Source: a virus
Taxonomy: Duplodnaviria > Caudoviricetes
Length of the DNA: 64,000 nucleotides
Direction: 5' to 3' (one strand)
Virus record (IMG/VR): IMGVR_UViG_3300033547_000001
Span: 10,014 to 74,013 of that record
Position 1 is the stretch's first letter; the number at the start of each line of letters is the position of its first letter. The notes below the pieces were generated by a model. It was given only the letters and a program-made list of their open reading frames with translations, ran no database searches and had not been told where the DNA came from. Both the position numbers and the translations under genes were made by a program. This document shows, piece after piece, positions 9,913-53,927 of the stretch.

Positions 9913-10346
9913 CCTACCGACAGTGCGATGATGAGATAAATCAGGTTAAGCGCCATCACCAGCAGCCACCAGCGATGCCCGTAGCGATGGGTGGATAGCG
10001 CAGCCAGGATCCAGATGTTCGAGGCGGCGGCGCCGAATGTCCCAGCGAGCATCAGCCAGAAACCCAGCATCAGCCCGGGACCGCGCCACAGCGCTACCCC
10101 GACGGTCAGCACCGAGGCCGTCACCGTCCATGCGAAGATCGCGGCACCGAGGCAGATGCCATAGCGGCGCACGTTGTGCATGTCGACGATGCGCGACAGA
10201 GATGGGTGGCCATTGCTGACGCCAAACGGGTTTTTCAATTCGATCAGCAGAAACCACGCCAGGAACGATCCCAGCGCAACGCGATTGATGACGGAGACGA
10301 TGTTGGCCAGATCGAGAATGTGGTTAAGTTCCTGCGTCGTCATCAT
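9909..10346 (-). CDS. Multi-pass membrane protein (holin candidate)
   Basis: About four hydrophobic segments in 145 aa. Confidence 0.65.
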   Translation of the reverse strand: MMTTQELNHILDLANIVSVINRVALGSFLAWFLLIELKNPFGVSNGHPSLSRIVDMHNVRRYGICLGAAIFAWTVTASVLTVGVALWRGPGLMLGFWLMLAGTFGAAASNIWILAALSTHRYGHRWWLLVMALNLIYLIIALSVG

Positions 10347-35994: not shown

Positions 35995-37119
35995 CTAGAT
36001 GCCGAGCATGCTCGCGACGGCGAAAGTCTGCCGAAGCACGGTCCCCATGCTGCCGCCGGTGATCTTCTGTTTCCAAGAAGACAGGTCGGGGATGAGGCGG
36101 TGGGTCCGCATCTTTTCGTTGAATGCGCAGAACCCGGTCTGCTGGCCGCGCACGCTGGTGCAGATCAGCTGCATGAAGTTGCCGCCGAGCACGCCCTGGG
36201 GGTTCGCGGTGGACTGCGCCTGATACTGGATCGCGTCGACGATGCGAAGGTTCGGGATCTGCTTCAGCAGGTCGCTAACGTTCACGTCGAACGAGTTGGT
36301 CGCAGTGATCGCGAACTTCGATGTCGGCGCCAGTGCCAGGACGAACGGGGATTCCTGGTTGATGTTGCCGCCCGACTGCACGATCAACTGGATTACCAGC
36401 GACTGGATGTCCAGGTAGATCTCGTTCGGCGTCGCCGTGATGACGCCGTTCGTGATCCACAGGTTGTTGCCGAACGATTTCGGCCCTGGGATGAGCGATG
36501 CGGTCAGGTTCGGGTCGTTGAGAAGGCCGTAGTTCTGCAGCCCCTTGACGCCAAAGAAGTAGATCTGGTTCTGGTAGCGGTTGAGCGCCCACGCGGCCGC
36601 CGCGTTGAGCTCGCTGACCCAGTTGATCTTCGCCAGGCCGGCGACGGCCAGTTCCTTCTCGCCGTAGCCAAGGATGGTCTGGAACAGGTACGGCTGCCTC
36701 TGGGGAAATCCGATGTTGGTGCTGACCATCCCGCTGGTCGAATAATCGTCGTAGCTCGAGACCTGGCCGGTATGCTCGGCGACCGGGAAGATGACGGTCG
36801 ACAGCGTCCAGTCGCCCTTCTTGACCTCGCCGAGGATCTCCGCCGCTTTCAGGGGCGAGAACAGGATCTCGTAGATCGTCGGGTCGATCATGGTCGACAG
36901 CATTACGGGGATGCCGGTGTTCTGCGTGGTGGTCAGCAGCGGCTGGGCGTCCTGCGCCATGTAGGGCGCCAGGCCCTGGTCCATGGCGAGGTCCCAGTCG
37001 TGCTTCCACCCCTCGGGGATGTACATGCGGGCGTTCTCGAACAACGCTCCGTTCTTCTCGTAGCGCGGCTTGTCGGCCATGAACTGAGAGCGCGCTTCCT
37101 GTACGTTCGTGCTGAACAT
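35995..37119 (-). CDS. Major capsid protein (DUF2184/HK97-fold)
   Basis: AMDQ/AQDAQP..NTGIP, KKGDWT, SYDDYS, N.IYFFGV.GLQNYGLLNDPNL, WKQK..GG. Confidence 0.9.
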   Translation of the reverse strand: MFSTNVQEARSQFMADKPRYEKNGALFENARMYIPEGWKHDWDLAMDQGLAPYMAQDAQPLLTTTQNTGIPVMLSTMIDPTIYEILFSPLKAAEILGEVKKGDWTLSTVIFPVAEHTGQVSSYDDYSTSGMVSTNIGFPQRQPYLFQTILGYGEKELAVAGLAKINWVSELNAAAAWALNRYQNQIYFFGVKGLQNYGLLNDPNLTASLIPGPKSFGNNLWITNGVITATPNEIYLDIQSLVIQLIVQSGGNINQESPFVLALAPTSKFAITATNSFDVNVSDLLKQIPNLRIVDAIQYQAQSTANPQGVLGGNFMQLICTSVRGQQTGFCAFNEKMRTHRLIPDLSSWKQKITGGSMGTVLRQTFAVASMLGI

Positions 37120-37232: not shown

Positions 37233-38201
37233 TTACGGGATGTCGGTGATCTTGACGAGCTCGCCGACCGCGGCGGCGTTGCGCGCGGTCCACTTCGTGG
37301 CAAAGTTCGCAGCCGCGGTGATAGTCGTCGACGTGACCGTCTGGGTCGGATCGACGACATAGGTGCCCGCTCCACCAGTGGTGCCGGTGAGCTGCTGATA
37401 GAGGGTCGTGGTGACGGTGATGCCGGTGCCGGTCAGGGTCTGCCCCGCATTGAACGTGCCGGTGATGGTGCCGCCGGCTGTGAATACCCCATAGGTGCCG
37501 CTCACCGCAGTCGATGCGGCGGACTGCTCGGGAATGCTCAGCGTGTAACGGCCGAGGCCATTCAGCGCCTCGCCGGCCAAGAGCGGCGTGAGCTGGCTCA
37601 CGATCTTGCTGCCGGTCGAGATGCCGGTGCCGCTGATCGTGGCGCCAGGATAGATGTTGCCGGTCAGGCCCGATGCGGCCGTAAGGATGTCGCCGGCGAC
37701 CGAGCCGGTGACCGAGAATGTGGCCGCAGCGATCGACGACGCCGTGCCGGAAGCAGTCAGAGCAGCGAACGAGACCGATCCATCGGCGAAGTTGGCGTAA
37801 GCCGTCTGACCGAATGCAACGGCAGCCGTCCCGTTGTTCTTCACCCAAAGATCTACCTTGTTGTAGACCGCGATCTGGAAGCCGCTCTGGATGTAGAACA
37901 CGGACTCGGCGAGATACTGCGTGATGATGCCCTGCTGCTTGCGCGAGACCAGGCCGGCGGGCTGGCCGGAGCCGAACGTGTTGACGGTGCCAGGCGCGTT
38001 GACGTCGTCGGTCGACTGGTAGGTCACCCACGCGAAGCGGCCGACGACCGCGCCGGGGACAGAGACACCGGCGATTACGCCGGCGCCCGAGATCAGGGCG
38101 CCCTCGCCCGCCATCACGGTGCCGCGCGGATTGTACGACGCGAAGTCGCCCTCGATGCCAGGCGCTTGCGTGGTGTTGACCTGGGACTGGATGTTCGTCA
38201 T
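37233..38201 (-). CDS. Capsid decoration/cement protein with inserted modules
   Basis: PGIEGDFASYNPR, VGRFAW, G..AYANFADG, WTAR....GELVKIT. Confidence 0.8.
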   Translation of the reverse strand: MTNIQSQVNTTQAPGIEGDFASYNPRGTVMAGEGALISGAGVIAGVSVPGAVVGRFAWVTYQSTDDVNAPGTVNTFGSGQPAGLVSRKQQGIITQYLAESVFYIQSGFQIAVYNKVDLWVKNNGTAAVAFGQTAYANFADGSVSFAALTASGTASSIAAATFSVTGSVAGDILTAASGLTGNIYPGATISGTGISTGSKIVSQLTPLLAGEALNGLGRYTLSIPEQSAASTAVSGTYGVFTAGGTITGTFNAGQTLTGTGITVTTTLYQQLTGTTGGAGTYVVDPTQTVTSTTITAAANFATKWTARNAAAVGELVKITDIP

Positions 38202-38287: not shown

Positions 38288-39202
38288 TTACGCGCTGCCG
38301 ATGCGGTCGAGGTTCTTGGCGATGTTGGGAAGACGCTTGGCGAAGTCGGCCTTGCTGCCGGCGCCGCCGCTGCTATCCATCGCGATCGTGGTGTTGCGCT
38401 TGCCGCTGTCGGGGGACGACAGATTGTCGAACATGAACTTCAGCGCGTCGGCCTTCACGCCGGCGAGCGGCTTGGTGTCCTTGCCCGCTGCCTGGATGGC
38501 GTGGAGATAGACGCCCTCGACGCTGTCGAATGCCATGCTTGAGAGTTCGCCCACTCGGGGTCGGACGTGATCCTTGGCAGCGTAGATCGCCTGCTGGAGC
38601 TCGCGCTCCTGCTTGATAGCTGCCTGCACCTTCTTGTCGGTCGCTGCGTCCATGGCCTTCTTGTCCTCCTTCTCAGCCTCATCCTTGGCCTTCTTGTCGC
38701 GCGCGCCGGCGCTGGGCTTCTCGTCCTTCGCCTTCTTGTCCTTGGCCTTCTTGTCTTTCGAGAATTCCAGCTTTTTCTTATCTTCGTCATCCGGATCGCC
38801 GTCTTCAGCGGTCTCCTCGACGTCCTCATCCTCGGCGGATTCGGACTCGTTGTCCTCGTCCTCTTCGTTCTTGTCCTCGTCCTCGGCCGTCTTCTCCTTG
38901 TCCTTCGGCGGCCATTCGTCTTCCGCCTTGGGCATTCCGCCTTCGATCATGTCGAGCACCGCGTCGAGGCCTGCCTTGATGCTGCCATCCTGGGCGAACT
39001 TCGGCTGCAGTTTGCCCTTGACGAGCTCCCGCACGTAAGCGGCCAGGACCGGCCGCTTCGCCTTCCAATTGCTCGCGCGGATGTTGCGCAGTCCCTTCGT
39101 CAGATCGATGCTCGCGTCCATCGCAAGCATGGGCTGCAGGTGCGCCATCAGCGCGCCATAGGCGATGCTGGCGGTAGAGGACATCAGAACTCTTTTGGTC
39201 AT
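38288..39202 (-). CDS. Nested in-frame scaffolding protein
   Basis: AAGGAGG eight nt upstream of an in-frame ATG (MTKRVL), right after the DUF2213 VVVGD end; acidic/Lys-rich. Confidence 0.65.
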   Translation of the reverse strand: MTKRVLMSSTASIAYGALMAHLQPMLAMDASIDLTKGLRNIRASNWKAKRPVLAAYVRELVKGKLQPKFAQDGSIKAGLDAVLDMIEGGMPKAEDEWPPKDKEKTAEDEDKNEEDEDNESESAEDEDVEETAEDGDPDDEDKKKLEFSKDKKAKDKKAKDEKPSAGARDKKAKDEAEKEDKKAMDAATDKKVQAAIKQERELQQAIYAAKDHVRPRVGELSSMAFDSVEGVYLHAIQAAGKDTKPLAGVKADALKFMFDNLSSPDSGKRNTTIAMDSSGGAGSKADFAKRLPNIAKNLDRIGSA

Positions 39203-40861
39203 GGTAAAAGCCTCCTTCGGGATGAGTGGGTTTTTGGAATCGCCTACAACTACGTCCGGACCAGCCCTACCGTCGGAAACCAGGGCGACGTGATTTCCAA
39301 CGATGTCTCGCATCACTCCGTCATAGCGAGTGCCGTTATAGGAGCCTGGAGTCATGTCGGCGCGGTAGCGGTACGCGCTCGATAGCTCTTTCTTCTTCTC
39401 GCTCTTAACCGCCTTGATGCCTTTGTCGGCCCAAATGACGAGGCTGTTCTTCAGGTAGGTCCCGTCGAACTCTGCGTCCGTTCCGGTCGAGCCGATCACG
39501 TGCTCGGGCTTGTGGTCCGCAGCACTAACCGGGACGTGCTCATCGAGCACCGGTTTGTTGTTGAACGTGCTGGCCGCCTTCTTGAGCTCATCCGGGTCCC
39601 GAAACAGGTAGTAAATCTTGTCGGCCGTGAGCCCCAGCGTCTTCCACTGTGGGATCTCGTCGCCGCGGTACGGGTTGACCGCGGCCTTGCTGATATTGCT
39701 GACCTCGACGTGCAGGTGGCCGTCGGGGCTCTCGGTCCGGTTCCCCTTCGCAGGCGCAGCATAGTCGAACGCCAGGCCGTGCCGGTCGATCATCAGGCCG
39801 AACGGCGCCCGGTCGAGCGCCAGCAGCTCGTCCATAGCGCCCATCCCGGGCTTCATGGGCGCGTGCGTCATGGCGGCGACGCCCGAACCCCCACACGCCG
39901 AGCACATGTCACCGTGGACGTTCCCAGCCCCGCCGCAGGCCCCACAGAGGCCGTCCTGGGCGTGCTTGAGCTTCTTGGCGCTCCCGACGATCGGCGGGAA
40001 CCCGGAGTTGGCCGCGGTGGTAGCCTGGACCTGGTCCTGCGCGTGCCGAGGTTTCTTGCCGGTGCTCTTGATCCCGCGGATGCGAAATGCGCCGTCCCCG
40101 TCGATGAAGAACTTCTTCTCGTGGTCTGAATCACCGGGGTCGACCACCACGTCGAATGAGTGCCCGATCGACGAGGTCTCCTGCAGGTGCGCCAGCAGGC
40201 GCTTGAGCTGGTTCTCGTCGTCGTCGAGGTCGATGACGATCTGCTCGTCCTTGGCGATCTCCTCGCCGCGCGCCCAGCCCGCGAAGTTCTTGTGCAGCGT
40301 CGCCCAGTCCTCTTCACTCATGTCGTCGGTGGCGCCGAGGTCCGTGCTCAGGCGCTCCTTGACCGCGGGGTGGATCGGCGACGGCAGTTCGTGCAGCCCG
40401 AACCAGCCGGCGCCGGTGTGCTCGTTGTTCAGCTTCGGCGAGAACTTCTCGGCGACCGGCTTCGCGAAGGTGTGGAACGTCTTGCCCGTGGGGGTCGACC
40501 GACGATCCATCAGCCGCTTCGGCCCCTGCGGCGAGGTGTTGCCGAGCTCCTCGGCGTTCTCCCGATCGGCCGCCTCCTCGGCGCTCTCGCCCGGATCCCC
40601 ATTGCCGCCCGGGAGCGACCAGTGGCCCGCGAAGTTCTCCTCCTTGGCTGACCTGCGCAGCAGCAGGACGTGCCCGTCCGGGGCGACGTGCACCGTGCCG
40701 GCGACTATAGCTCCCTTGGGCAGCACTCGCGCGTCAGGCATCTCGCCGTTTTCGTCGGCCGCGACGAACTCCTCGCCCACGGCCTTCGGGATCCCTAGGC
40801 GCGACTTTCCCTCCGCGGCGGCATACATCGCGCGCTTTTGCCGTGGTGTTTTGGCTGGCAT
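38288..40861 (-). CDS. Polyprotein: NUDIX + small domains + DUF2213 prohead protease + scaffold
   Basis: GGNGDPGESAEEAADRENAEELG NUDIX box; CxxCxGxG x2; NISKAAVNPYRGDEIP, KELSSAYRY, NHVALV..GRAGPDV.VGD. Confidence 0.88.
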   Translation of the reverse strand: MPAKTPRQKRAMYAAAEGKSRLGIPKAVGEEFVAADENGEMPDARVLPKGAIVAGTVHVAPDGHVLLLRRSAKEENFAGHWSLPGGNGDPGESAEEAADRENAEELGNTSPQGPKRLMDRRSTPTGKTFHTFAKPVAEKFSPKLNNEHTGAGWFGLHELPSPIHPAVKERLSTDLGATDDMSEEDWATLHKNFAGWARGEEIAKDEQIVIDLDDDENQLKRLLAHLQETSSIGHSFDVVVDPGDSDHEKKFFIDGDGAFRIRGIKSTGKKPRHAQDQVQATTAANSGFPPIVGSAKKLKHAQDGLCGACGGAGNVHGDMCSACGGSGVAAMTHAPMKPGMGAMDELLALDRAPFGLMIDRHGLAFDYAAPAKGNRTESPDGHLHVEVSNISKAAVNPYRGDEIPQWKTLGLTADKIYYLFRDPDELKKAASTFNNKPVLDEHVPVSAADHKPEHVIGSTGTDAEFDGTYLKNSLVIWADKGIKAVKSEKKKELSSAYRYRADMTPGSYNGTRYDGVMRDIVGNHVALVSDGRAGPDVVVGDSKNPLIPKEAFTMTKRVLMSSTASIAYGALMAHLQPMLAMDASIDLTKGLRNIRASNWKAKRPVLAAYVRELVKGKLQPKFAQDGSIKAGLDAVLDMIEGGMPKAEDEWPPKDKEKTAEDEDKNEEDEDNESESAEDEDVEETAEDGDPDDEDKKKLEFSKDKKAKDKKAKDEKPSAGARDKKAKDEAEKEDKKAMDAATDKKVQAAIKQERELQQAIYAAKDHVRPRVGELSSMAFDSVEGVYLHAIQAAGKDTKPLAGVKADALKFMFDNLSSPDSGKRNTTIAMDSSGGAGSKADFAKRLPNIAKNLDRIGSA

Positions 40862-40865
40862 GGTG

Positions 40866-41171
40866 TCAGCGCATCTCGCCGCTGGTGATGAAACCATGCC
40901 AGAGGCCGCCGGCGCTCCCGTCGATCGACGGCATCACGGTCAGCGTCGCGAAATCCGCCGCTTCGATCCCGCCGGCGATCGACCACGCGATGCCGGGCTT
41001 GCAGCTCTGGACGTGGTCGGTGTCGAATAGCTCCCACTGGTCCCGAGTCGACGGCGAGGGGATGGCGAAGCAGCTCTGGCGCCACTTCGGGTCAGCGGGG
41101 CTCACGAAGGTGAAGCCGACGCGCCGGCCGTCCTTCATGATCCACTTCGGGTCGAGGTCGAGAAGCTTCAT
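40866..41171 (-). CDS. DUF6527-like protein (copy A)
   Basis: W..AG..TLTVMPSID...WHGFITSG; GAGG RBS. Confidence 0.6.
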   Translation of the reverse strand: MKLLDLDPKWIMKDGRRVGFTFVSPADPKWRQSCFAIPSPSTRDQWELFDTDHVQSCKPGIAWSIAGGIEAADFATLTVMPSIDGSAGGLWHGFITSGEMR

Positions 41172-41185
41172 AAGGGCCACCTCTC

Positions 41186-41218
41186 AAAAGAAAAAGGCCC
41201 CAGTTTCCTGAGGCCTTT
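41186..41218 (-). terminator. Intrinsic terminator
   Basis: AAAGGCCTCAG-GAAA-CTGGGGCCTTT followed by TTCTTTT. Confidence 0.75.
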
Positions 41219-41524
41219 CCTCGTCTGGCAGACTTTGTCGCCAGACCTTCATTGAGGGCATTCGCCCTCCTGAAAATGTACGCTCCCTCATTATCGCTCG
41301 CGAAGCGATGTCCCTGGAACGTTACTCGGCGGGACCGACGACCCAGGCTGCAGGCTCTGGTAGGGAGAATTCTATAGTTGGCGGATCCTGAGAAATCAAT
41401 CGTTGGCGTCACGAACACCGAAGGCTACCCGCTTCAGGCAGGTCGACTGCCGATTTAACGACCACTCCGACCTCTGGATCCGGACCCTCTATGCCGTCTA
41501 GCCGGGCGTCCCCGGCCGCTCAAC

Positions 41525-41777: not shown

Positions 41778-41975
41778 CTACGCGTCGCCGCGCTTCAGCA
41801 TCTCGGCTACTTGGCCCACAGTGAGGTCCTCGTCAAGGGGTCCCACGCAGTCGTCGCATGGCTTCTGCGCCTTGCGATACTTGTTGCGCGCACAGCCCTT
41901 GCCCTCGCCCCTGCACGCCCAAAGCCGAAACTCGCCGCTGGTGTGCTTCGCCAGGACCAAGCTGAGATCAGCCAT
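41778..41975 (-). CDS. Small Cys-containing protein (MADLSLVL...)
   Basis: TGATG coupling to GNAT; C..C..CDDC. Confidence 0.6.
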   Translation of the reverse strand: MADLSLVLAKHTSGEFRLWACRGEGKGCARNKYRKAQKPCDDCVGPLDEDLTVGQVAEMLKRGDA

Positions 41976-42409
41976 CACCCGACCTCGAACGTGACCGTGA
42001 TGCAGGTCTCGCGCCCGCCGTGCTTCGCGGCGATCTCGCGCATCGCCGCATTCCGCGGATGCGTGCCGAGCATGATCCTCGGCGCCTTGATCTCCGCGGC
42101 CTTCTCGACCGCCGCGGCGAACAGCGCCGTGTATACGCCGCGCCCCCTGAACTCGGGGATGGTGTAGGCCTGCAGCAGGAACACGGTCTTGGTGTGCTCC
42201 AGGAAGTCGTAGGTCAGCACTCCGACCGGGATCTTCTCCTGGCCGTTCCGCGCGATCGCGATGAAGGCCTTGAAGTTCCACCCCATATTCAGTACGCCGC
42301 CGGGCTCCCCGAGCCCGCGTTCGTCGACGTCGAGCCATCCCATCACCGAGAGCCGTGCCGCGGGCGTGCCGTTCAACCCGTCGACGTGCTGGATCTCGAT
42401 GTTCGTCAT
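41975..42409 (-). CDS. GNAT acetyltransferase
   Basis: AYTIPEFRGRGVYTALF acetyl-CoA motif A; N.AMR..A.KHG. Confidence 0.85.
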   Translation of the reverse strand: MTNIEIQHVDGLNGTPAARLSVMGWLDVDERGLGEPGGVLNMGWNFKAFIAIARNGQEKIPVGVLTYDFLEHTKTVFLLQAYTIPEFRGRGVYTALFAAAVEKAAEIKAPRIMLGTHPRNAAMREIAAKHGGRETCITVTFEVG

Positions 42410-42621: not shown

Positions 42622-42839
42622 GGCTGCTTCGGCCGCAGCACGATCTCGTAGCCGAGCGTCTCGGCTAACCTCGCGAGCGTGCGAAGCGTCGGGCTTCGCT
42701 TGCCGAGCTCGACGTCGATCAGGCTCGTTCTGCCGAGGCCGGAACGCCGTGACAACTCGTCGAGCGTGAAACCCCATGCCCTGCGAACGCTGCGCAGCTC
42801 GGTTACGACTTCGTGCGTGCCTTGCTCTGGTAGGAACAT
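42618..42839 (-). CDS. XRE/HipB-like HTH protein
   Basis: LRSVRRAWGFTLDELSRRSGLGRTSLIDVELGKRSPTLRTLARLAETLG. Confidence 0.88.
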   Translation of the reverse strand: MFLPEQGTHEVVTELRSVRRAWGFTLDELSRRSGLGRTSLIDVELGKRSPTLRTLARLAETLGYEIVLRPKQP

Positions 42840-43165
42840 CAGGTCCTCGTTCTGGCGACCTCAGGCTCGTCCGTCTTAGCCACCGTCACGCACCTACCAC
42901 GCTCGATGTAACCGTGCCAGCACCTGCCGCAGTTGACCGAGGGGCTGAAGGTCGGCGCATCCCTGTTGCCGTCCCAGTCCCATTGCGCGCTACCGCCGTT
43001 CTTGCCCTGCGGATCCCTCGGCTGGCCGGTCTTGCCGGCGATGATCAGGTTGCCGCAGCGCCTATCGTGCATCGGGCAGTTGAAGCTGAACACCTCCTCC
43101 TTGCCCGGCTCCGCGTCCCTGTCGCCGACCTCGAGCAACTTGAAACGAACCTTCGCGTCGCTCAC
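42839..43165 (-). CDS. DUF6527-like protein (copy B)
   Basis: CP..CG, WDWDGNRDAPTFSPSV, CWHGYIERG. Confidence 0.7.
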   Translation of the reverse strand: MSDAKVRFKLLEVGDRDAEPGKEEVFSFNCPMHDRRCGNLIIAGKTGQPRDPQGKNGGSAQWDWDGNRDAPTFSPSVNCGRCWHGYIERGRCVTVAKTDEPEVARTRT

Positions 43166-43338
43166 TTACTCAGCTCCTTGGCGATCTGAGTGCAAGCTTC
43201 GCGCGCCCTTTTGGCGCGAGAATATGCCGCTCTCATCTCCTCGACGTCTGCGATCGCAGCGAGATGGGTGACCGCCTGCTTGAACGCCTCGTCGAACGCG
43301 TCGAGCGCGGTATCGAGTTCGGTGGGGCGATCGCTCAC
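43162..43338 (-). CDS. 58-aa helical protein (MSDRPTELDTAL...)
   Basis: GTGA coupling at both ends; not in ORF track. Confidence 0.55.
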   Translation of the reverse strand: MSDRPTELDTALDAFDEAFKQAVTHLAAIADVEEMRAAYSRAKRAREACTQIAKELSK

Positions 43339-43646
43339 GAGAAGTCCTCGCCCTTGTCGACTGGTATCGGCGGCATGGCCACGATGTCCGATCGGCCATG
43401 CCAGCTGTCCGCGCAGAACTGGATCATGCCGTCGGTGATGAAGTAGTGGCAGACCACCTCAACACCAACCACTTCGGCCCCCATGGCGACGAACGTCTGC
43501 TTGAAGCTCGGCGTGAACAGCGGCCGCGCGAAGTTGCCGTTGAACTGCCAGCTGTCAGGCAGCGGGTGCAGGCGCTCGCACGCCGGGCACCAGTGATGCC
43601 AGCCGCCAACTGAAGCGCGAACGATGAGCGGATCGGCCTGTTTCAT
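43335..43646 (-). CDS. DUF6527-like protein (copy C)
   Basis: CPAC...H, WQFNGN..PLFTPSF, CHYFITDG.IQFCAD..H. Confidence 0.7.
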   Translation of the reverse strand: MKQADPLIVRASVGGWHHWCPACERLHPLPDSWQFNGNFARPLFTPSFKQTFVAMGAEVVGVEVVCHYFITDGMIQFCADSWHGRSDIVAMPPIPVDKGEDFS

Positions 43647-44305
43647 GACTTCTTTCTCGCCCATGTGGCAAGCTTGGCTTGTCGGATACGTTCGCAAGTT
43701 TCTGGCGATCGCTTCAATCCTCGGCCAGCAATTCCTATTTTTGCCCGGGTCTCTGCCGATAGCACTCTTTTAGGTCTGGCAGCAAGCGCCTCCGGCGAGA
43801 ACTTAAATCCGGACTTAGCGGTGCTGATCTTCAACCGCACCGATGGATGCTCCATTGCGGACTTCGTCGCTGCACTTATCCTAGACCGCCTCTCAGGAGA
43901 GATGGGCTTTCCTCTCAACGCAGCCGATCTCTTTGCATTGGATGCTGGCGTTCGCACCAGAGCGCGACTGGCATCAGCTATCTTAACCAAAGCTTCAGCA
44001 CCATGGCGGTTTCCAAGCATCGGATTGAAGTCGCCTCCAAGACCGACGTTGTAGCCGAATCTTCGGTCAGTAGTTCGAAATGCAGCAATCGCCTTAATTT
44101 CCAGTTCGTGGATGTAATCCATCGAACCGATGACAAGAGTTCGCATTCTAGCTTCGTTGTACTTAGCAATGGCTGCACAAATTGGCCGTTTTAATCTCTT
44201 CGCATCCGACAGATGGTCGCGCCATCTAACTTCCGCCGTTCGGCCTGTGATACCGAAATAACGCTTACCATTTGGAAATTCGATGACGTAGAGCAGATAG
44301 GACAT
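43643..44305 (-). CDS. GIY-YIG homing endonuclease with NUMOD3-like repeats
   Basis: LLYVI..NGKRYFGIT...RWRDH, E, GYN..GG, SAETRAKI and SPETCERI repeats; AT-rich. Confidence 0.88.
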   Translation of the reverse strand: MSYLLYVIEFPNGKRYFGITGRTAEVRWRDHLSDAKRLKRPICAAIAKYNEARMRTLVIGSMDYIHELEIKAIAAFRTTDRRFGYNVGLGGDFNPMLGNRHGAEALVKIADASRALVRTPASNAKRSAALRGKPISPERRSRISAATKSAMEHPSVRLKISTAKSGFKFSPEALAARPKRVLSAETRAKIGIAGRGLKRSPETCERIRQAKLATWARKKS

Positions 44306-44307
44306 TG

Positions 44308-45315
44308 CTAGCTGAAACCTTTGATTACCGAGATGCTGACGCACCTACAATTAATCAAAGTTCCTGGCCAGATCCACTTCTTTTCATGTGGATCGAACCA
44401 TCCTTTTTTCACGTCAAAAAGCTTCCCGTTGTTCGCGAGGTGGGTCGGCCTAGGCACCTTGCCGCCGCCGCTGTGCCGCCACTTCGCCTGCGTGATGCCG
44501 AGCTCGACCTGGCGCACACGGTGCATATTCGCGGAAGCCTTGTTGTTCTGATCTCTGGCGATTAGCGCCGCCCGCCGCTTCGTGATCGGATACCGCGCTT
44601 CAAGCTCCTTCGCCAGCGTCCCCAGGTCTCGCCCCGCCGAGACCGACCGCATCACGAGGCCCTCGATGTCCGAGAAATACTCGCTGGCGATCGACCGGAT
44701 CAGACCGACGTTCTCAGCGGTGGTCGCCTCGACCACATCCCTCATCGCCGGCGTCATCTGGAACTTCACCGAGAAGCCGCCCTGGCGCAGGATCGACCGC
44801 ATTGACTTGTCCGTGCGCTGCGATACCGCCTTGGCGAAGTAATTTGCCAACTTCGGCGCCGCGGCGTCGATGTTCGCCGTCCACCGGTCCGCCATCTGCC
44901 TCACGGCCTTCGACATCACGACCGCCGGCGAATGCCTCATGGCGATCTTGGCCACGTCCAGCGCTGCCTCGCGCGTCTTCCAGGTGCGCACGGCGCCGTC
45001 CGAGCGCCTCAGTACGATCCCGTCGACGTAGGCCCGCCATGTGCCGTTCTCCGTCAGCCTCGCGTCGGGCCCGCTCAGGCTCGGCTTTGGCGAGTATCGA
45101 TCCGCTGGCGCATCGTCCATCGCCATCGCTGGCGGGTTGTTGCGATAGGCAGACTTCAGCCAATAGACGGTCGAGTCGTTCATCTCCTCGATCAGGCGCA
45201 GCAGCCGAGCCCTGTACTCGACCTGGATCCCGAGATTGGGGTGCAGCGGACGGAGCTTGATCTCCTTGCCGCGCGAAGGAAGCACTTCGGTAGCTTGGAA
45301 AGGAGATCGTGCCAT
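44308..45315 (-). CDS. MuF/gp7-like head morphogenesis protein
   Basis: ENVGLIRSI, RAALIARDQNNKA, WRHS.GGK.PRP.H, PGTLINCRC. Confidence 0.9.
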   Translation of the reverse strand: MARSPFQATEVLPSRGKEIKLRPLHPNLGIQVEYRARLLRLIEEMNDSTVYWLKSAYRNNPPAMAMDDAPADRYSPKPSLSGPDARLTENGTWRAYVDGIVLRRSDGAVRTWKTREAALDVAKIAMRHSPAVVMSKAVRQMADRWTANIDAAAPKLANYFAKAVSQRTDKSMRSILRQGGFSVKFQMTPAMRDVVEATTAENVGLIRSIASEYFSDIEGLVMRSVSAGRDLGTLAKELEARYPITKRRAALIARDQNNKASANMHRVRQVELGITQAKWRHSGGGKVPRPTHLANNGKLFDVKKGWFDPHEKKWIWPGTLINCRCVSISVIKGFS

Positions 45316-45593
45316 GTACACCTGATTTCTCGATCTGGCGATAGAGCTTGATTAGATCCCTATAGATCTCGGCATCAATGTCGATCGAAACCATCGGTGC
45401 TATAGGATCACCGTATTCGGCGATAATTCGCTGTAGGTAACCGAGCCTTGGCCGGATGACCGATATCGACGCCGCGCCGGCGAGGAAAGACCGGCGCGTC
45501 ATGTCCATAGCGCGACTCCACCGTTCGCGTCTGCTTTTAGCCAGATCACGTCATCACCACGCTCGTCGTGGGTCGTTTCGTGCGTGACACGGA

Positions 45594-46131: not shown

Positions 46132-49020
46132 TCACCCCTTGCTGCCGTAGCCGGATTCGCCCAAGATCTTGAGCATCTGTGCAGCACCGGCTGGGGATGA
46201 TGCGACGTTTTTTACCTCTTCAGGAACGGAGTTCCACGCGATTCCCCCGTTCTCCTTGTATTCGGGCTTCCATCCGCTCGACAGAGCCTTGGTTATGACG
46301 TTCTCGCGGTGCTTGTAGACCTCATCTTTTTGCTTTGCTGCCTCCTGCCGCTGGGCCGCTTCTTCCGCAGCACGAGCGGCTGACGACATATTCTTCCAGC
46401 GATCGAAATCTTTGCGATATTCGGAATGCTGCTTCGAAACATCGTCATGCTCGTTGTTGATGACCTGATCAACTTCTTCGAGCGCAGCCCGCAGTTCGTC
46501 TCGAAGATTTCCTATTTCCTCCCGCAGAGCTTCTTCGGCATCCACGATATCGCTCTCGACTTCTTCGGCGTCGATGTCCTCGTCCGAGATCCTATCGCCA
46601 TCTTCATCCAACCCGTGAATGAGATGATGCAAATTATCGGATGTCGAATTTAGCTCTTCGAAGCGACCGGATATATCCTGCACAATGCGGCTGATCTCGC
46701 CAGATTGGATGTGCGATAGACCAAATTCTTCGAGACTTAGCTTCTTGAAAGAAGATCCTTCCGGCTTGTCCCCGGCCAAAGCATCCAGCTTGTTGGCAAT
46801 ATCAACGAGATTGTTTCGCACCTTGGCGACAACTGCGGGAGCTTTCTCGTATGCATATTCTTGAGCGTTCTGCTCCGCCTCGAACTCCATCCCCTCGTCT
46901 AAGTCCGCGCGATCCTCTGGAGTGACATCCCAGACATCGCTGATTACTCCGTTGAACTCGTCATTCAAATCTACAAGTTTGGAATGGAGCTTCTCGCTTA
47001 CCTTTGCCGCCTTATCAAGTTTGAGCTCCTTGGCCGACTTCGAGAGCGATTGCGCCCCAGTGGATCCGAATTTTCCGTCCGGCGCGCGCGGGTGGTCGGA
47101 TTCATTGAACTCATCCCACGCGGTATGAACGAAAGGGATGACGGCATCGTTGGCCCCGCCTCCGTCGTCTTCGCTCTCGCCACCGGCGCCGCCTTGCGCT
47201 TTGCCGCCCTTGACGACGAGGCCCTCTTCCTCTTCCTCAGCCAGGTCCGGGAGATGCTCAGGCGGCAGCCCGTTGTAGGGCGAATTTTCATCGGAGACGA
47301 TAACGCTGCGGACTTCGCCCTGGCCGATCGCGCCGAGGTCGACGTAGATCGTATGCGTCTCGGCCTCGATCTTGCGGACCTCGGCCTGGCCCTTCTCGTC
47401 GAGGGACCACAGCGGCTCGAACTCGAATCCGATCGCGGGGTCAACCTCGCCATAAAGGTCGAGCTGAATGAAATTGATGATCGTCTGCAGCTTGTAGCGC
47501 CATAGCGACTCCTGCATCGCGTTGACGAAATCATAAAACACCCGCAACTCGCCTTCGCTCGAGGCGTTCAGGCCAGTCGGAGTGATGCCGAGGAGGACGA
47601 TCAGAGGAAGTCCTGAGACGCTTGAAAGCTGCTCCTGCGACTGCGCCTGCAGCGCGTCGAGCGTTCCAAGAGGCGTCGAGACGTTGAAGAACTCCTCGGT
47701 CTCCTTGTCTAAGACCATCGAGCCCATGTTCTGCCGCGTCTCGGCGAACAACTCGATACGGTCGACGACCTCCTCGCCGCCTCCCTGCAGCAGGCTCTGG
47801 GCGTTGGTGTAGATCCCGCTGACCGAGAAGCTCTCGATCAGGTCGGTGACGGCCTGGCGCGTGCGAAGCCAGTTGTCGACGTACGGCTTCGCCATCTGCG
47901 ACAGCGACAACCCACCAAAGGCGTAGGCTGGCTTGAGCAGGTCCGGAACCTCGCGGCCAACGAATGTCAGCAGGCGCGATCGGTGGATCTGCTTCTGCAT
48001 CGCGAACCAGACATCGGGACGATACCAATCGTCCGCCAACGGGTCGGTCGCGTTGTAGCGCACAGGGTAGCACCACACGGGCTCGATGTGCTTCAGCGCC
48101 TTGAACGATCCCTTCTTGAACTTGCGCTTGCTGACGTCATTCGATCCGTCACCGAGGTCGGTGAGCAGCTCGGCCGGATCATCCCCGTCGCCGGTGTCGA
48201 TGTAGAGGTGGCTCCTGCCCATCCAGCAGTCGTATTCGGCGACGTTCTTGAAGCGGCCGCGGACGTCGAGCTTCTTCATGCGCTCGTTGATCTTGCGCAG
48301 CTTGCGCTCACGCGCCTTCTGCTCCGGGCTCGCCTCCACCGGCTTGGGCTTCGGCCGCTGCTTCTGGAGCGCGGCCTCCTCGTCTTCCTCCTGCGGCGCG
48401 CGCTCGGCCGCGATCGATATCTTGCTGGTCGGCGCCTTGTCCTGGGCGACCTTCTTGCCGTCGTCGTCCTCGTCCGTGTCGTCCTCGCCCTCGCTGGCGA
48501 TCGTGAGCCGGATCCACTTCCGGGTCATCTCGGTCGCGAGGCGCTCGCCCATCCTGCGATATTCGGGGCGCAGCGTGAGTTCGGACAGATAGGCATAACC
48601 GAGGAACGCCAAGCCTTCGGCAAACGCCGCGCCGAAGCCGCCCGACATGCTCATCGCCGAGCTGAATGAATCGTTTGCCCAACTGGCGAGGTCGCTGTCC
48701 ATGGCCAGCGCCGGTTCCCTACCGGGCGGCAGGACGCCCGGTGGGGGGTTGTAGGCCTGGAACGGATTGACCGCAGTGATCTGCCCGAAGATCGTATCCC
48801 CGCCTCCGCGCTCCATGGCTTGGCGCATACGGCGCCCTCGGATCTTCGCCCGCACACTGGGGTTGATCTTGAGCGCTGTCTTCGGCGCTGGTTGAGCGGG
48901 CGCTGACGGCTCAGCTGGCTTGGCAGGCGCTGGCGTCGGCGCGTGGTTGATCACGCCCATCACCGACCTACGGATCAACTCCGAAGCCTCGGTTTGCTTC
49001 CTGTAGCGCGTCACGGTCAC
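46132..49020 (-). CDS. Portal protein (DUF1073 type) with about 330-aa C-terminal extension
   Basis: FLGYAYLSEL..RPEYR, FGGLSLSQ..YVDNWLRTR, LLGITPTGLNASSEGE, F.PLW; then FNESDHPRAPDGKFG and an acidic helical tail. Confidence 0.9.
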   Translation of the reverse strand: MTVTRYRKQTEASELIRRSVMGVINHAPTPAPAKPAEPSAPAQPAPKTALKINPSVRAKIRGRRMRQAMERGGGDTIFGQITAVNPFQAYNPPPGVLPPGREPALAMDSDLASWANDSFSSAMSMSGGFGAAFAEGLAFLGYAYLSELTLRPEYRRMGERLATEMTRKWIRLTIASEGEDDTDEDDDGKKVAQDKAPTSKISIAAERAPQEEDEEAALQKQRPKPKPVEASPEQKARERKLRKINERMKKLDVRGRFKNVAEYDCWMGRSHLYIDTGDGDDPAELLTDLGDGSNDVSKRKFKKGSFKALKHIEPVWCYPVRYNATDPLADDWYRPDVWFAMQKQIHRSRLLTFVGREVPDLLKPAYAFGGLSLSQMAKPYVDNWLRTRQAVTDLIESFSVSGIYTNAQSLLQGGGEEVVDRIELFAETRQNMGSMVLDKETEEFFNVSTPLGTLDALQAQSQEQLSSVSGLPLIVLLGITPTGLNASSEGELRVFYDFVNAMQESLWRYKLQTIINFIQLDLYGEVDPAIGFEFEPLWSLDEKGQAEVRKIEAETHTIYVDLGAIGQGEVRSVIVSDENSPYNGLPPEHLPDLAEEEEEGLVVKGGKAQGGAGGESEDDGGGANDAVIPFVHTAWDEFNESDHPRAPDGKFGSTGAQSLSKSAKELKLDKAAKVSEKLHSKLVDLNDEFNGVISDVWDVTPEDRADLDEGMEFEAEQNAQEYAYEKAPAVVAKVRNNLVDIANKLDALAGDKPEGSSFKKLSLEEFGLSHIQSGEISRIVQDISGRFEELNSTSDNLHHLIHGLDEDGDRISDEDIDAEEVESDIVDAEEALREEIGNLRDELRAALEEVDQVINNEHDDVSKQHSEYRKDFDRWKNMSSAARAAEEAAQRQEAAKQKDEVYKHRENVITKALSSGWKPEYKENGGIAWNSVPEEVKNVASSPAGAAQMLKILGESGYGSKG

Positions 49021-50345
49021 GCCCGGCGCCCGCCCATGGATGCCACCTTCGCACGAATGTTCTTGCTGATCTTCATCGGCAGCCTCACGTGTGTTCGATG
49101 GTAGGCCGCCAGTGCCAACGCCATGACGCAGTCGTCGTGGAATCCTTCCGGCGCCTCATAGCGGACACCGGTCCGGGTATAGACATACTCGAAGCTTTCC
49201 AACTCGCGACGAATGTGACCCGGATGATCATGCGGAAGTACGCCGTCGGGCGCATCTGGGAACGAAACCTCGCCCGTATGGATCGCGATCTGAAGTGCCT
49301 CCATCAGGATCTGCTTGGACTGCTGGCTGAAGATATAGCCCTCGACTCGCGCTCCTGGCTTCTTCTGCAGTCGTTCGACGACCACGTCGCCAACGCCCGT
49401 GCTGTCAGCGAGCGTCGGCGTCGTGCCGATCGACGCGTGGATAAGCGGGTATTGCGCCTCCCACCCGATCTGCATGCGCATGAACTTGCCGAGCCGGCCG
49501 TACTGGTCGAGGCCGCAGTCCACCGTCCAGTCCTGCTTTTTAGCGAAGTCCAGCCCGTGCACGATCACGGGCCCGGTCGTCATCGGCTGCACGCACGCGG
49601 CGATCGCCCTCAGGCCGAATGGGTTGCCCTGGTCGTCGCTCGGCTCGGCGAGGTACAGCTCCTTGAACACCGCCTCGGGGAGAACCTTGCGAGCGTCCTC
49701 GACCTCATCGGCCTCCAGGACGTGCGCAGCAATCGCGTCGATCGCCGTGATCTTGTGGTAACCGAAGTTGGCGTCGTCGCCCTTCTCGGCCTTCCTGGCG
49801 AGCTGGTAGAACCAGTTGCGGCGCCCCTTGACGTTGCCGATGATCCTGATCGGGCCGCGGGTGGCCGTCAGCGTCGACCGGACAGCGAACCAGGAATCCT
49901 CCTTCGTGCGCGAGGCCTCGTCCATTACCGCCGCATAGACGTCCTCGCCGTAGAGCGAATCCGGCTTGTCGGCCGACTTGAACCAAAGCACCGCGCCGTT
50001 GATCAGCGTGATGGTCTTGAGCGTCTGGTTCTCGGTCCGAAGATCGTGCGGGATCGCCCGCAATGCCCGTCGAAAGGCGATGTCTGCTTGCCCGCTTACT
50101 GGCGCTATCCACCAATAGTTCCATCCCTCCTGACCATGCAGAGCCTGTTCAAAAAACCAGACAATACATGCACTTGTCTTTCCCGCCTTAGTGGACGCCT
50201 CGATCAGTGAATAACGCCGCGAGTCGAAGATCGCGTGCAGCTGCTTCGGATAGAGGTAGGGCCGCTCGTAGTCGAGGATGTACTCCTCGAGGTCCGCGAC
50301 CGCGCCTATCTTGCCGGTGCCCTCCTGGGCCTCGTTGATCGCCAC
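49017..50345 (-). CDS. terL: Terminase large subunit
   Basis: ASTKAGKT Walker A-like, VMDEA Walker B, GLDFAKKQD and HDDCVMALA nuclease motifs. Confidence 0.93.
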   Translation of the reverse strand: MAINEAQEGTGKIGAVADLEEYILDYERPYLYPKQLHAIFDSRRYSLIEASTKAGKTSACIVWFFEQALHGQEGWNYWWIAPVSGQADIAFRRALRAIPHDLRTENQTLKTITLINGAVLWFKSADKPDSLYGEDVYAAVMDEASRTKEDSWFAVRSTLTATRGPIRIIGNVKGRRNWFYQLARKAEKGDDANFGYHKITAIDAIAAHVLEADEVEDARKVLPEAVFKELYLAEPSDDQGNPFGLRAIAACVQPMTTGPVIVHGLDFAKKQDWTVDCGLDQYGRLGKFMRMQIGWEAQYPLIHASIGTTPTLADSTGVGDVVVERLQKKPGARVEGYIFSQQSKQILMEALQIAIHTGEVSFPDAPDGVLPHDHPGHIRRELESFEYVYTRTGVRYEAPEGFHDDCVMALALAAYHRTHVRLPMKISKNIRAKVASMGGRRA

Positions 50346-52290: not shown

Positions 52291-52318
52291 AGAGCCCGGC
52301 CTTAGTGCCGGGCTTTTT
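52291..52318 (+). terminator. Intrinsic, probably bidirectional, terminator
   Basis: AGCCCGGC-CTTAGT-GCCGGGCT-TTTT between convergent genes. Confidence 0.85.
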
Positions 52319-53589
52319 CATGCCGCGGCTTTGGAGCGGTCCTTGACGACCTGATCGAAGGTCTTCTTCGTTCCTTGCAGCACGGCTTTCTTGTCAGAGA
52401 ATTTCTCCCACCGTCGCACGGCCAAGTCCACATAGGCCGGGTTCAATTCGACGGCCAGACATACCCTTCCAAGCGTTTCCGCCGAGATGATGGTGGTGCC
52501 GCTACCAGCGTAGGGCTCAAACACCAGATCGCCGGCGATTGAGTAAAGCCGGAGCAATCGGGAGATTAACTCCACCGGCTTCGCCCATGGCACCGGCCGC
52601 TCCCAATGGCCGCACGAGAACAACTTCGAATAGTCGGCGTGTTCGAGACCATGCTGAGGAGCAATCTTACCGATCAGAACGACATAATCGAGGTCAGACA
52701 TGAGGTGGTTGTTGTGGTTTGGAACCGAAGCTTGTCGGTGCAGAACTGCAACGTCCCACTTCAACTTCTTTGCTCGAGCAAGATCAAGGTAGTCTGCAAG
52801 CAGATCCTTCGATGTGAAGATCACGTTAGCTTCACTGAGCGAGCACAGGTCCGAAACCTTGAAGTCTGCGACTTCGTCGCGCTTCATTTTTGCGGTGTGC
52901 GTCATGTCGCTGTAGATTCCACCTCCTCGCGTCTCAGCGCTATAGGGTGGATCTGCTAACATCAACTTCGGACGTTCGGCGAACAGTTTTGCCGTGATCT
53001 TTTCGCTACTCGAATCCCCACAGACCAGACGGTGAGAGCCCATCAACCATACGTCGCCGAGCCTTGATACCGCCGGCGCCAGGTCGGGGATGTCGTTCGG
53101 GTTGCCGGATCCGCCAGCGCCACCGATGAAGGTAGCCAATCGAACATTGTCAAAACCGGTGAGGTGCAGCGGGTAGTCGAGCTTTGCGAGCGTGGTCAGG
53201 CCGATCCGCAGCAAGCCTTTGTCGAAACCGGTCATTGCCGGCAGAGCATTGTCGCTGATAACGATCGCCCACTTCTGCGCCGGCGTCAGGCCTGGGCGAA
53301 CTATGGTCGGCACCAAAGCCCGCTCTGCTTTGCGTGCGCCGAGCTGACGCCCATGCCCTTTGAGGATCGTGTCGGTCTCGTCAATCAAGATCGGCTGGTC
53401 GAATCCGAACTCCAGGATGTTCGTCGCGATTGCGTCGATTTGTTCTGGCGTATGGATCTTCGGATTGTTCGGAAACGGGATGAGATCGTCCACCGGGCGC
53501 ATCACGATTTCTTCGGCAGTGAACTTGATCTCAGGAGCCGATACATTGGCGCCCGACTGCCTTTTCCTCTTCGAGACCTGCGTCTTCAA
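52318..53589 (-). CDS. ParB-like nuclease domain fused to N4/N6 DNA methyltransferase
   Basis: L.P.PNNPK.H..QI..IA..I.EFGF..PILID..GHGR; ADPPY; EPYAGSGTT; TTG start overlaps upstream stop. Confidence 0.9.
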   Translation of the reverse strand: MKTQVSKRKRQSGANVSAPEIKFTAEEIVMRPVDDLIPFPNNPKIHTPEQIDAIATNILEFGFDQPILIDETDTILKGHGRQLGARKAERALVPTIVRPGLTPAQKWAIVISDNALPAMTGFDKGLLRIGLTTLAKLDYPLHLTGFDNVRLATFIGGAGGSGNPNDIPDLAPAVSRLGDVWLMGSHRLVCGDSSSEKITAKLFAERPKLMLADPPYSAETRGGGIYSDMTHTAKMKRDEVADFKVSDLCSLSEANVIFTSKDLLADYLDLARAKKLKWDVAVLHRQASVPNHNNHLMSDLDYVVLIGKIAPQHGLEHADYSKLFSCGHWERPVPWAKPVELISRLLRLYSIAGDLVFEPYAGSGTTIISAETLGRVCLAVELNPAYVDLAVRRWEKFSDKKAVLQGTKKTFDQVVKDRSKAAA

Positions 53590-53927
53590 TCGATCGCCTC
53601 CGCGTCCACCGCGTCGCCCTTCATCAGCCTGAGCTTCTTCTGCGCCTCGAACGCGCTCGGATAGTTGCCTAAGGACGGCTTGATGAAGGCGCGAGGCACG
53701 TTCGCATAACCAAGTTGCTGGTTGGCGTCGTTGAAGACCATGGTGGCGTCGTATCCCCTGCCTTCGATCACCGCTCGACGCCTGGACCTGTTGCCGGCGC
53801 GCGTCCACTCGTGCGGCCAGTGCGTGACGAAGCCGGAGTCGATCAGCACCGCCATGTAGACGGTCATCTCGGAAAACGCCTCAACGTCCTTTTGATGTAC
53901 GGGATAACTCTTGCGCTTGAAGGCCAT
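53586..53927 (-). CDS. Hypothetical protein
   Basis: Operonic, coupled to the MTase. Confidence 0.65.
   Translation of the reverse strand: MAFKRKSYPVHQKDVEAFSEMTVYMAVLIDSGFVTHWPHEWTRAGNRSRRRAVIEGRGYDATMVFNDANQQLGYANVPRAFIKPSLGNYPSAFEAQKKLRLMKGDAVDAEAID

Follow-up and report, generated by a model that had tools for sequence, protein, structure and literature searches.

How a tailed phage might divide one long head protein into an enzyme, a protease and a scaffold, and by what signal, is the question raised by a gene in the viral record IMGVR_UViG_3300033547_000001 (Duplodnaviria; Caudoviricetes). The window analyzed here is the whole stretch of 64,000 nucleotides at positions 10,014 to 74,013 of that record, which is most of the 74,013-bp phage genome; all positions below are those of the window. 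The gene lies on the minus strand and encodes, in this order, a leader, a NUDIX domain, three small modules, a DUF2213 protease domain and a scaffold tail. A reading of the letters without database searches (the sequence-only reading) had proposed that Ala-x-Asp (A-x-D) tripeptides are the sites cut by the protease and that the phage uses them to package and release the NUDIX hydrolase and other effectors in the head. Our analysis indicates that an Ala-x-Asp-type motif is very likely a previously undescribed cutting site of this protease family. In the narrower form [A/G]-[M/Q/F/C]-D, with the cut after Asp, the motif would, with high confidence on the comparative evidence, be the maturation site of the DUF2213 proteases.

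The longest version of the open reading frame (ORF) begins at an ATG at 40897 and encodes 869 amino acids (aa). Residue numbers below are those of the 869-aa ORF, the real numbering being lower by 12. Because the N-termini of homologues line up at M13 (ATG at 40861) and the stop codon of the upstream ORF lies 4 nt ahead of that ATG, M13 is the likely true start, in agreement with the position used earlier. Pfam places NUDIX at residues 66-177 and DUF2213 at residues 387-554, whereas PHROG 2229 (head maturation protease) spans residues 370-853. A full-length AlphaFold (AF2) model made with 108 homologues has folded parts corresponding to leader helices (18-50), NUDIX (61-186), a helix (195-210), the protease (384-554) and scaffold helices. 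A small module at 228-275 is only weakly predicted, and low-confidence linkers fall at 215-219, 279-316, 339-383, 555-569, 663-733 and 833-847. An assembly or gene-fusion artefact was ruled out because more than 100 homologues have the same architecture. The parts of the polyprotein are as follows.

38288..40861 (-): polyprotein ORF from the likely start M13, 857 aa plus stop
40754..40861 (-): N-terminal leader, residues 13-48, ending in AAD (homologue consensus, two predicted helices)
40325..40717 (-): NUDIX hydrolase domain, residues 61-191, ending in ATD (Pfam PF00293, E 4e-16)
40247..40324 (-): helix 195-210 and linker, residues 192-217, ending in AKD (AF2, predicted local distance difference test score (pLDDT) below 50 at 215-219)
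40034..40246 (-): 71-aa module, residues 218-288, with GHSFDVVVDP, ending in AQD (clean indel among homologues)
39953..40033 (-): 27-aa spacer, residues 289-315, ending in AQD (within the low-confidence linker 279-316)
39830..39952 (-): double CxxCxGxG zinc-knuckle module, residues 316-356, ending in AMD (weak DnaJ_CXXCXGXG match)
39764..39829 (-): pre-protease linker, residues 357-378, with ALD and a near-invariant AFD (homologue alignment)
39116..39763 (-): DUF2213 (Pa193_gp24) protease domain and one helix, residues 379-594, ending in the conserved AMD 592-594 (Pfam PF09979, PHROG 2229)
38288..39115 (-): scaffold-like C-terminal tail, residues 595-869 plus stop, with conserved AQD 635, AMD 748, AFD 789 and AMD 839

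A cut determined by protein sequencing in a relative ties the motif to maturation of the major capsid protein. In KPP12, a PB1-like phage, the mature major structural protein ORF23 starts SNFTAPVTT by N-terminal (Edman) sequencing (PMC3474789). PB1 ORF23 reads SAMD, with AMD at residues 62-64, followed by SNFTAPVTT, and the 20 Edman residues of KPP12 equal PB1 residues 65-84 exactly. In this PB1-like phage the capsid protein is therefore cut directly after A-M-D. The corresponding features here are these.

35995-37119 (-): major capsid protein, head module
36949..37119 (-): capsid propeptide, residues 1-57, with AMD 45-47 and AQD 55-57; predicted mature N-terminus A58 (AQPLLTT)

Both capsid tripeptides had been claimed and both are present, AQD 55-57 standing directly before AQPLLTT. 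HMMER aligns residue 64 of this capsid protein with residue 72 of E217 gp25 (chain 8frs, which starts at residue 66), and the first 65 residues of the E217 capsid protein were not seen by its authors (PMC10329688). A metagenome-wide protein search gave 2300 capsid-protein homologues. In a set made up of 120 database homologues plus PB1 and Bcep43, 120 of 123 proteins have [A/G]-x-D in the three residues preceding AQP.L.T, most often as AMD (95), followed by GMD (7), AQD (5), AFD (5), ALD (3) and AYD (2). Four distant cultured phages, Bcep43, Aeromonas 4_D05, Acinetobacter phiAC-1 and Xanthomonas XPP1, likewise have AMD ahead of the mature capsid domain. The same four carry A/G-M-D in the scaffold tail, AMD near the portal N-terminus where the portal was read, and AFD-then-R.S.R ahead of the protease domain.

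Within the polyprotein all eight tripeptides previously listed ahead of DUF2213 were found (AAD 46-48, ATD 189-191, AKD 215-217, AQD 286-288, AQD 313-315, AMD 354-356, ALD 360-362 and AFD 376-378). Also present are those claimed for the scaffold (which has AMD 592, AQD 635, four AED, AKD/ARD runs, AMD 748, AFD 789 and AMD 839), the portal (AMD 106, AQD 192, AND 115 and 623, AWD 634) and MuF (AMD 67). The sites at 215, 286, 313, 354, 360 and 376 fall in low-confidence AF2 linkers. Motif statistics were computed on a hand-picked ORF list of the genome. The polyprotein contains 26 A-x-D where 10.1 are expected, a number that none of 2000 shuffles reached; its A-[MQ]-D number 7, with 0.5 expected. 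For the five head proteins the A-[MQ]-D count is 12, with 1.24 expected (Poisson p 9e-9), and five of these remain once the polyprotein is set aside (0.75 expected, p 1e-3), whereas the 49 remaining proteins have 6 against 5.04 expected. Generic A-x-D is unenriched in the head proteins other than the polyprotein (15 versus 11.2), and the informative motif is therefore A-[MQF]-D rather than any A-x-D. The expected contrast between head proteins and the rest of the genome thus held for A-[MQ]-D, whereas for generic A-x-D it was confined to the polyprotein.

A metagenome-wide search of 5.8 billion proteins returned 345 polyprotein homologues. The best 120 of the 345 were used for enrichment, 118 were split by domain, 108 were aligned and six were aligned in detail. 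Nearly all of the best 120 have NUDIX plus DUF2213, and their sources are metagenomes and prophages of Mesorhizobium, Rhizobium and Bradyrhizobium. All of them are enriched, with an observed-to-expected ratio of about 2 for A-x-D and about 8-10x for A-[MQ]-D. In a scan of 400 gapped residue pairs A.D ranked highest by z, and AMD was the strongest tripeptide apparently not derived from a conserved domain block. Split by domain, the proteins showed A-[MQ]-D at 12x in the region from NUDIX to protease and at 10x in the scaffold tail, whereas the two folds themselves were at expectation (1.0x inside NUDIX, 0.9x inside the protease). The columns AFD 376-378, AMD 592-594, AQD 635-637, AMD 748-750, D791 and D841 are kept in at least 90% of the 108 aligned proteins while their surroundings vary, and D362, A376 and D378 of the pre-protease linker are kept to the same degree. 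In the alignment the linkers are poorly conserved but the tripeptide within them is kept, which in itself speaks for a function. The pattern is real, departs from chance and extends across the family.

Candidate sites stand at conserved places in two further head proteins.

46132-49020 (-): portal, 962 aa, head module
48697..48705 (-): portal AMD, residues 106-108, candidate site conserved in relatives
44308-45321 (-): MuF, head module
45115..45123 (-): MuF AMD, residues 67-69, candidate site conserved in relatives

AMD lies ahead of the portal domain in the portals of relatives L005, L006 and L007 and in those of PB1, Aeromonas 4_D05 and XPP1; the E217 portal is modelled only from residue 97. 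In MuF, PP.M-A[MQ]D occupies the same place in L006 and L007, and Bcep43 has AQD and phiAC-1 AMD.

The enzyme that would read this motif is the DUF2213 domain of the polyprotein. Residues 387-554 cover positions 1-167 of the 167-position PF09979 profile (E 9.8e-51, 172.5 bits against a cut-off of 22), a family that recent Pfam releases rename from DUF2213 to Pa193_gp24, and PHROG 2229 matches with E 5e-115. Foldseek searches with the full-length model gave NUDIX hits only, and the protease region (residues 379-594) was therefore folded separately (pLDDT 87.8). In a VIA-wide structure search, which is independent of Foldseek, the top match of this model was T4 gp21 (5jbl_A; Z 10.0, root-mean-square deviation 2.9 A over 129 residues). 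The proteases of varicella-zoster virus, human cytomegalovirus and Kaposi's sarcoma-associated herpesvirus followed at Z 8.1, 6.2 and 5.4, unrelated hits being at Z about 5. Foldseek likewise gave herpesvirus proteases and gp21 as the best matches of the domain model. H454, S506 and H536 are invariant in the 108 homologues, in that order and with spacings of 52 and 30. The alignment to gp21 pairs ranges rather than residues (model 7-164 with gp21 15-172), and on it H454 and S506 would fall near what we take to be His85 and Ser140 of gp21. The gene order TerL, portal, MuF, accessory genes, polyprotein, decoration protein and capsid protein is the same in relatives. Predicted fold, invariant residues and gene position together support reading the DUF2213 protein as a serine protease of the gp21 kind with a scaffold tail attached.

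In T4, gp21 cleaves a three-residue motif after Glu. The likeness to T4 extends from the fold to a short motif with an acidic P1 residue in many head proteins (gp23, scaffold core, IPI-III and Alt) and to a head-packaged enzyme, Alt, freed by the protease (PMC9503650). Here, in contrast, Asp takes the place of Glu at P1, with Ala or Gly at P3 and Met, Gln or Phe at P2; the cargo is fused in cis to the protease or the portal instead of being carried on a short separate capsid-targeting peptide, and the protease is also fused to the scaffold. The reports on phiKZ gp175 and SPN3US gp245 describe S/A/G-x-E sites, which share a small P3, any P2 and an acidic P1 and are processed in many head and ejection proteins (PMC5694885, PMC10052503). 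Those are jumbo phages with Glu at P1 and tens of separate cargo genes, whereas here there are Asp, one polyprotein and extensions of the portal and MuF.

A described homologue of the whole protease-scaffold region is the Pbunavirus gp24 (Pa193, PDB 9b40; PB1 ORF21), which was described as a capsid-bound putative scaffolding protein (PMC11456595). It shares DUF2213 plus scaffold tail, gene order, A/G-x-D in the tail and a capsid cut after AMD. It is without NUDIX or other N-terminal modules, and its papers recognise no protease or cleavage motif. Our literature search, to which subscription journals were mostly closed, found no paper defining the motif or recognising Pbunavirus gp24 as a protease. 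The virion-retained fragment 286-326 of Pa193 gp24 was considered as evidence for the motif and set aside: GAD lies five residues past its end in Pa193, but PB1 has EAD there. Agrobacterium phage 7-7-1, Milano and Alteromonas V22 proved irrelevant to the cleavage-motif question.

Taken as a whole, the gene product would be a head-assembly polyprotein with a leader, an active-looking NUDIX domain, variable modules, a serine protease of the gp21/assemblin fold and a capsid-binding scaffold tail, and we regard the full mechanism as probable. The scaffold tail would bring the whole chain into the procapsid, as the Pa193 structure suggests. The protease would then cut after Asp in [A/G]-[M/Q/F/C]-D within the polyprotein linkers, within the scaffold tail and at the sites near the portal and MuF N-termini. 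Such cuts would take the propeptide off the capsid protein, break down the scaffold, liberate the protease core and leave NUDIX and the small modules loose in the head. The 15-kDa NUDIX domain, folded and without a strong site of its own, would probably be retained with the DNA and pass into the next host, like the T4 internal proteins and Alt, and there it would hydrolyse a nucleoside-diphosphate-X compound.

The NUDIX domain looks like an active enzyme. Its Pfam match is above the cut-off, and of the NUDIX box (GX5EX7REUXEEXGU) residues G98, E104, R112, E113, E116, E117 and G119, five (G98, R112, E113, E116 and E117) are invariant in the 108 homologues and two (E104 and G119) are kept in at least 90%. 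Both 'U' positions of the box are Asn here and vary among homologues. Foldseek neighbours include MutT, Ap6A hydrolase, RppH and NTP pyrophosphohydrolases. NCBIfam equivalog models all scored far under their cut-offs (best 34.8 bits against 245; E. coli NudE E 0.004). Profile and fold comparison single out no substrate, and ADP-ribose or NAD-derived signals are a published guess. About 16 residues past the box is a near-invariant Pro136, in a position that we take to recall the ADP-ribose pyrophosphatase signature, although this is only a lead.

Several lines of comparison would place this domain and its neighbors inside the capsid. Among homologues the NUDIX-to-protease gap ranges from 40 to 730 aa, and in the six-sequence alignment modules are gained and lost as clean blocks between motifs, P0003 having an extra block of about 130 aa between GMD and AMD; the cargo, compared among relatives as the sequence-only reading had suggested, is variable. 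Three homologues have an ADP-ribosyltransferase (PF03496, Alt/VIP2 type) between NUDIX and protease (P0015, residues 232-400; P0021, 428-595; P0081, 378-523). In those three, one head protein would carry both a writer of ADP-ribose chemistry and a possible eraser of it. In the related head module of Bcep43/Bcep781 the same kind of NUDIX domain sits at the C-terminus of portal gp17, in Bcep43 directly after AQD, and would thus be present at 12 copies per virion, whereas here it is at the N-terminus of the protease-scaffold and would follow scaffold copy number. All cargo positions share a location inside the capsid, which makes release of NUDIX inside the head likely on these comparative grounds, and we rate release of the cargo there as probable. 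An ejected NUDIX with an anti-defence role is a more tentative proposal. Of the earlier claim that NUDIX is head cargo, the comparative fusions thus support packaging, and the later steps stay predictions. Iyer, Burroughs, Anantharaman and Aravind (2022) had reported Nudix fused to MuF, portal or capsid-processing serine peptidase and predicted that it is packaged and injected against NAD/ADP-ribose signals (PMC9503650). That work covers the same architecture class with the same prediction and gives no cleavage sites, and the injection and anti-defence half of the earlier interpretation was therefore already published as a prediction. What is provisionally new is the cleavage code, that is, a gp21-like prohead protease with an Asp-directed motif and cis-fused cargo.

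The portal carries what looks like a second cargo platform at its C-terminus.

46132..47121 (-): portal C-terminal extension, AWD 634-636 followed by a 326-aa module that opens with the EFNESDHPRAPDGKFG tag

The tag, EF(N/Q)E(S/G)DHPRAPDGKFGSGSG, lies at 47056-47121 (-), portal residues 634-655, and opens the 326-aa module after AWD. The same tag opens cargo modules in 10 homologous polyproteins (P0003, P0005, P0006, P0007, P0021, P0028, P0075, P0085, P0103 and P0107), always 6-8 residues past x-x-D, and it is found in the L007 portal as well. These proteins share the tag alone, the domains behind it being different. The tag may be a signal on the new N-terminus of freed cargo, or may extend the protease site on its P' side. 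Portal length ranges from 546 to 1264 aa among close relatives, including L005, L006 and L007, through N- and C-terminal extensions. PB1 has a different portal C-terminal domain, of the type named InPase for BcepF1 (PMC5512222).

A wider reading of these data is that the motif is the general maturation code of the DUF2213 clan and that, together with the portable tag (EFxExDHPRxxxGKFG), it makes up a cargo-loading system. A domain of any kind, if flanked by two motifs at the N-terminus of the protease or the C-terminus of the portal, would be carried in, freed and delivered with the DNA, with NUDIX constant and the other effectors fast-changing. The clan so defined would include PB1-like therapeutic Pseudomonas phages and Bcep781-, Acinetobacter-, Aeromonas- and Xanthomonas-type myophages. 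We put this generalization forward as possible, at less than even odds. As in the polyvalent proteins of Iyer et al. (2017), NUDIX and the variable modules (an ADP-ribosyltransferase in some homologues) put several effector domains on one late, predicted virion-associated polypeptide within the head module. For polyvalent proteins processing by a zincin-like metallopeptidase was proposed, with no cleavage sites given (PMC5512222), whereas here the processing enzyme would be the prohead serine protease itself. Scans with Pfam, PHROGs and NCBIfam found no metallopeptidase domain in the polyprotein, the embedded peptidase being the prohead serine protease.

It is also conceivable that the motif is cut and yet the N-terminal modules are not delivered, NUDIX acting late in the producing cell or only in assembly and being expelled or degraded afterwards, with the fusion serving to couple expression. 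The virion retention and ejection of NUDIX are our inference, small modules of 27-71 aa could be mere spacers, and some relatives make NUDIX as a free protein: in the Burkholderia phages Bm1 and BCSR129 a free NUDIX gene lies between MuF and protease, and that of Bm1 has no obvious targeting peptide and no N-terminal A-[MQF]-D. Against this stand the independent fusions of NUDIX to two capsid-interior proteins (portal C-terminus and protease N-terminus), the appearance in the same slot of an Alt-like ADP-ribosyltransferase, a classic injected head enzyme, and the invariant catalytic residues. We consider such a non-delivered NUDIX unlikely.

Much less probable is that every A-x-D is cut whatever its middle residue, which would take in the AED/AKD runs of the scaffold tail, with their acidic and basic residues, and two sites inside the NUDIX fold. 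Generic A-x-D is 2-3x enriched in linkers and tail, and E, L, K and H at P2 are each enriched about 3x, as this reading would have it. However, C, M, Q and F at P2 reach 8-12x while G, P, D, V, R and I do not exceed expectation, and the flat count of generic A-x-D in the other head proteins was given above. The two sites in the NUDIX fold, APD 72-74 and AAD 109-111, were not listed by the sequence-only reading; they are conserved structural parts of the domain, the second belonging to the NUDIX box, and cutting there would wreck a domain whose catalytic residues are conserved.

A still weaker case can be made that the tripeptide is a compositional or structural trait of Ala/Asp-rich scaffold helices, or a binding motif, instead of a protease site. 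A, D, E and K abound in the scaffold tail, and several conserved motifs lie in predicted helices. The enrichment nevertheless persists over the expectation from local composition, and the reversed and Glu versions gave none: the controls D[MQ]A, A[MQ]E and S[MQ]D were flat in the scaffold tail (D[MQ]A reached 2.7x in the NUDIX-to-protease region). The motif also stands at the Edman-determined capsid cut and in the 120 capsid homologues, and we find this explanation hard to credit. That another enzyme, a host protease or a different phage protein, cuts after A-M-D while DUF2213 is only scaffold is scarcely more plausible: the Pa193 and E217 papers never name gp24 a protease and the activity of DUF2213 is a prediction, but the domain has the gp21/herpesvirus fold with His, Ser and His invariant in order, Pfam and PHROG scans of the head-module proteins gave no other protease as best match (PHROG 595, annotated as head maturation protease, comes up as a secondary hit of MuF), and motif and DUF2213 co-occur in phages of Alpha-, Beta- and Gammaproteobacteria.

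The proposal that A-x-D is the protease site thus stands once narrowed to [A/G]-[M/Q/F/C]-D, on the KPP12 Edman data, the capsid homologues and an enrichment confined to linkers and tail and specific for direction and Asp. Several points count against parts of it. The relative that supplies the Edman anchor has a capsid protein just 26% identical to this one, and the cut site proposed for this phage follows from homology and statistics. Since several sites are inherited columns, the homologue motif counts are not independent. AMD 592, AQD 635 and AMD 748 lie in confidently predicted helices, where accessibility is not obvious. The assignment of H454, S506 and H536 as putative catalytic residues draws on invariance, order and the ranges aligned to gp21. 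At the leader/NUDIX boundary the A-x-D is absent from some homologues, and ATD 189-191 sits in a well-ordered part of the model. The module boundaries drawn earlier at A-x-D are not all conserved, and within the NUDIX fold the tripeptides are probably structural and not cut. Retention of NUDIX in the virion, its ejection and its substrate are predictions. Finally, if every scaffold copy has NUDIX, the head would have to hold copies of the order of a hundred, which is plausible by analogy with the T4 internal proteins.

The remaining modules vary in their distribution. The leader is conserved across homologues (consensus MP..S.KQRRAM.AA..G.S.LGIPK.V..EF), its AF2 helices span residues 18-28 and 38-50 with pLDDT about 91, and this conserved two-helix leader may be a targeting or regulatory peptide. 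Of the other five sequences in the six-sequence alignment, the 71-aa module is shared only by P0003, being missing from P0004, P0008 and P0010. It has no Pfam match, and an Atlas feature search gave no usable hit, the structure rows being short and heterogeneous. The 27-aa spacer is found only in this protein among the six. The zinc-knuckle module is in three of the six sequences (also in P0003 and P0011; not in P0004, P0008 or P0010). Its identification as a DnaJ domain was rejected, the DnaJ_CXXCXGXG match (E 0.003) being under the Pfam cut-off.

A megablast search of the 20-kb head region against cultured phages gave no match, and close relatives were found only in metagenomes and prophages. 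The neighboring genes, all on the minus strand, include the following.

49017-50345 (-): large terminase, head module
37233-38201 (-): XM1 gp53-like decoration protein, head module
43643-44344 (-): GIY-YIG/NUMOD3 homing endonuclease, between MuF and polyprotein
41975-42409 (-): GNAT acetyltransferase, between MuF and polyprotein
40866-41180, 42839-43165 and 43335-43697 (-): three DUF6527 paralogues, between MuF and polyprotein
52318-53808 (-): fused ParB-like nuclease and N6/N4 DNA methyltransferase, 496 aa, upstream of the packaging genes

At 322 aa the decoration protein is twice as long as XM1 gp53 (160 aa), and its match to the XM1 gp53 family is limited to roughly the first 170 residues. 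In relative L006 the corresponding place likewise holds a GNAT gene. The head module is otherwise tightly packed, but about 340 nt at 41186-41522 contain no convincing ORF.

The DUF2213 protein would be the combined head protease and scaffold of a very large group of phages (562 cultured phage records match it), including the Pbunavirus phages used in therapy cocktails, and the high-resolution structures of E217 and Pa193 left open whether, and by what, the capsid N-terminus and gp24 are cleaved. The cleavage code predicts the mature ends of the capsid protein, portal, MuF and scaffold fragments and which domains would be freed in the head, and these ends are checkable in existing virion mass-spectrometry data of therapeutic Pseudomonas phages. 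It turns the guess that Nudix and ADP-ribosyltransferase domains are injected into concrete fragment sizes and termini. In evolutionary terms, it would mean that a gp21-like protease switched its P1 preference from Glu to Asp.

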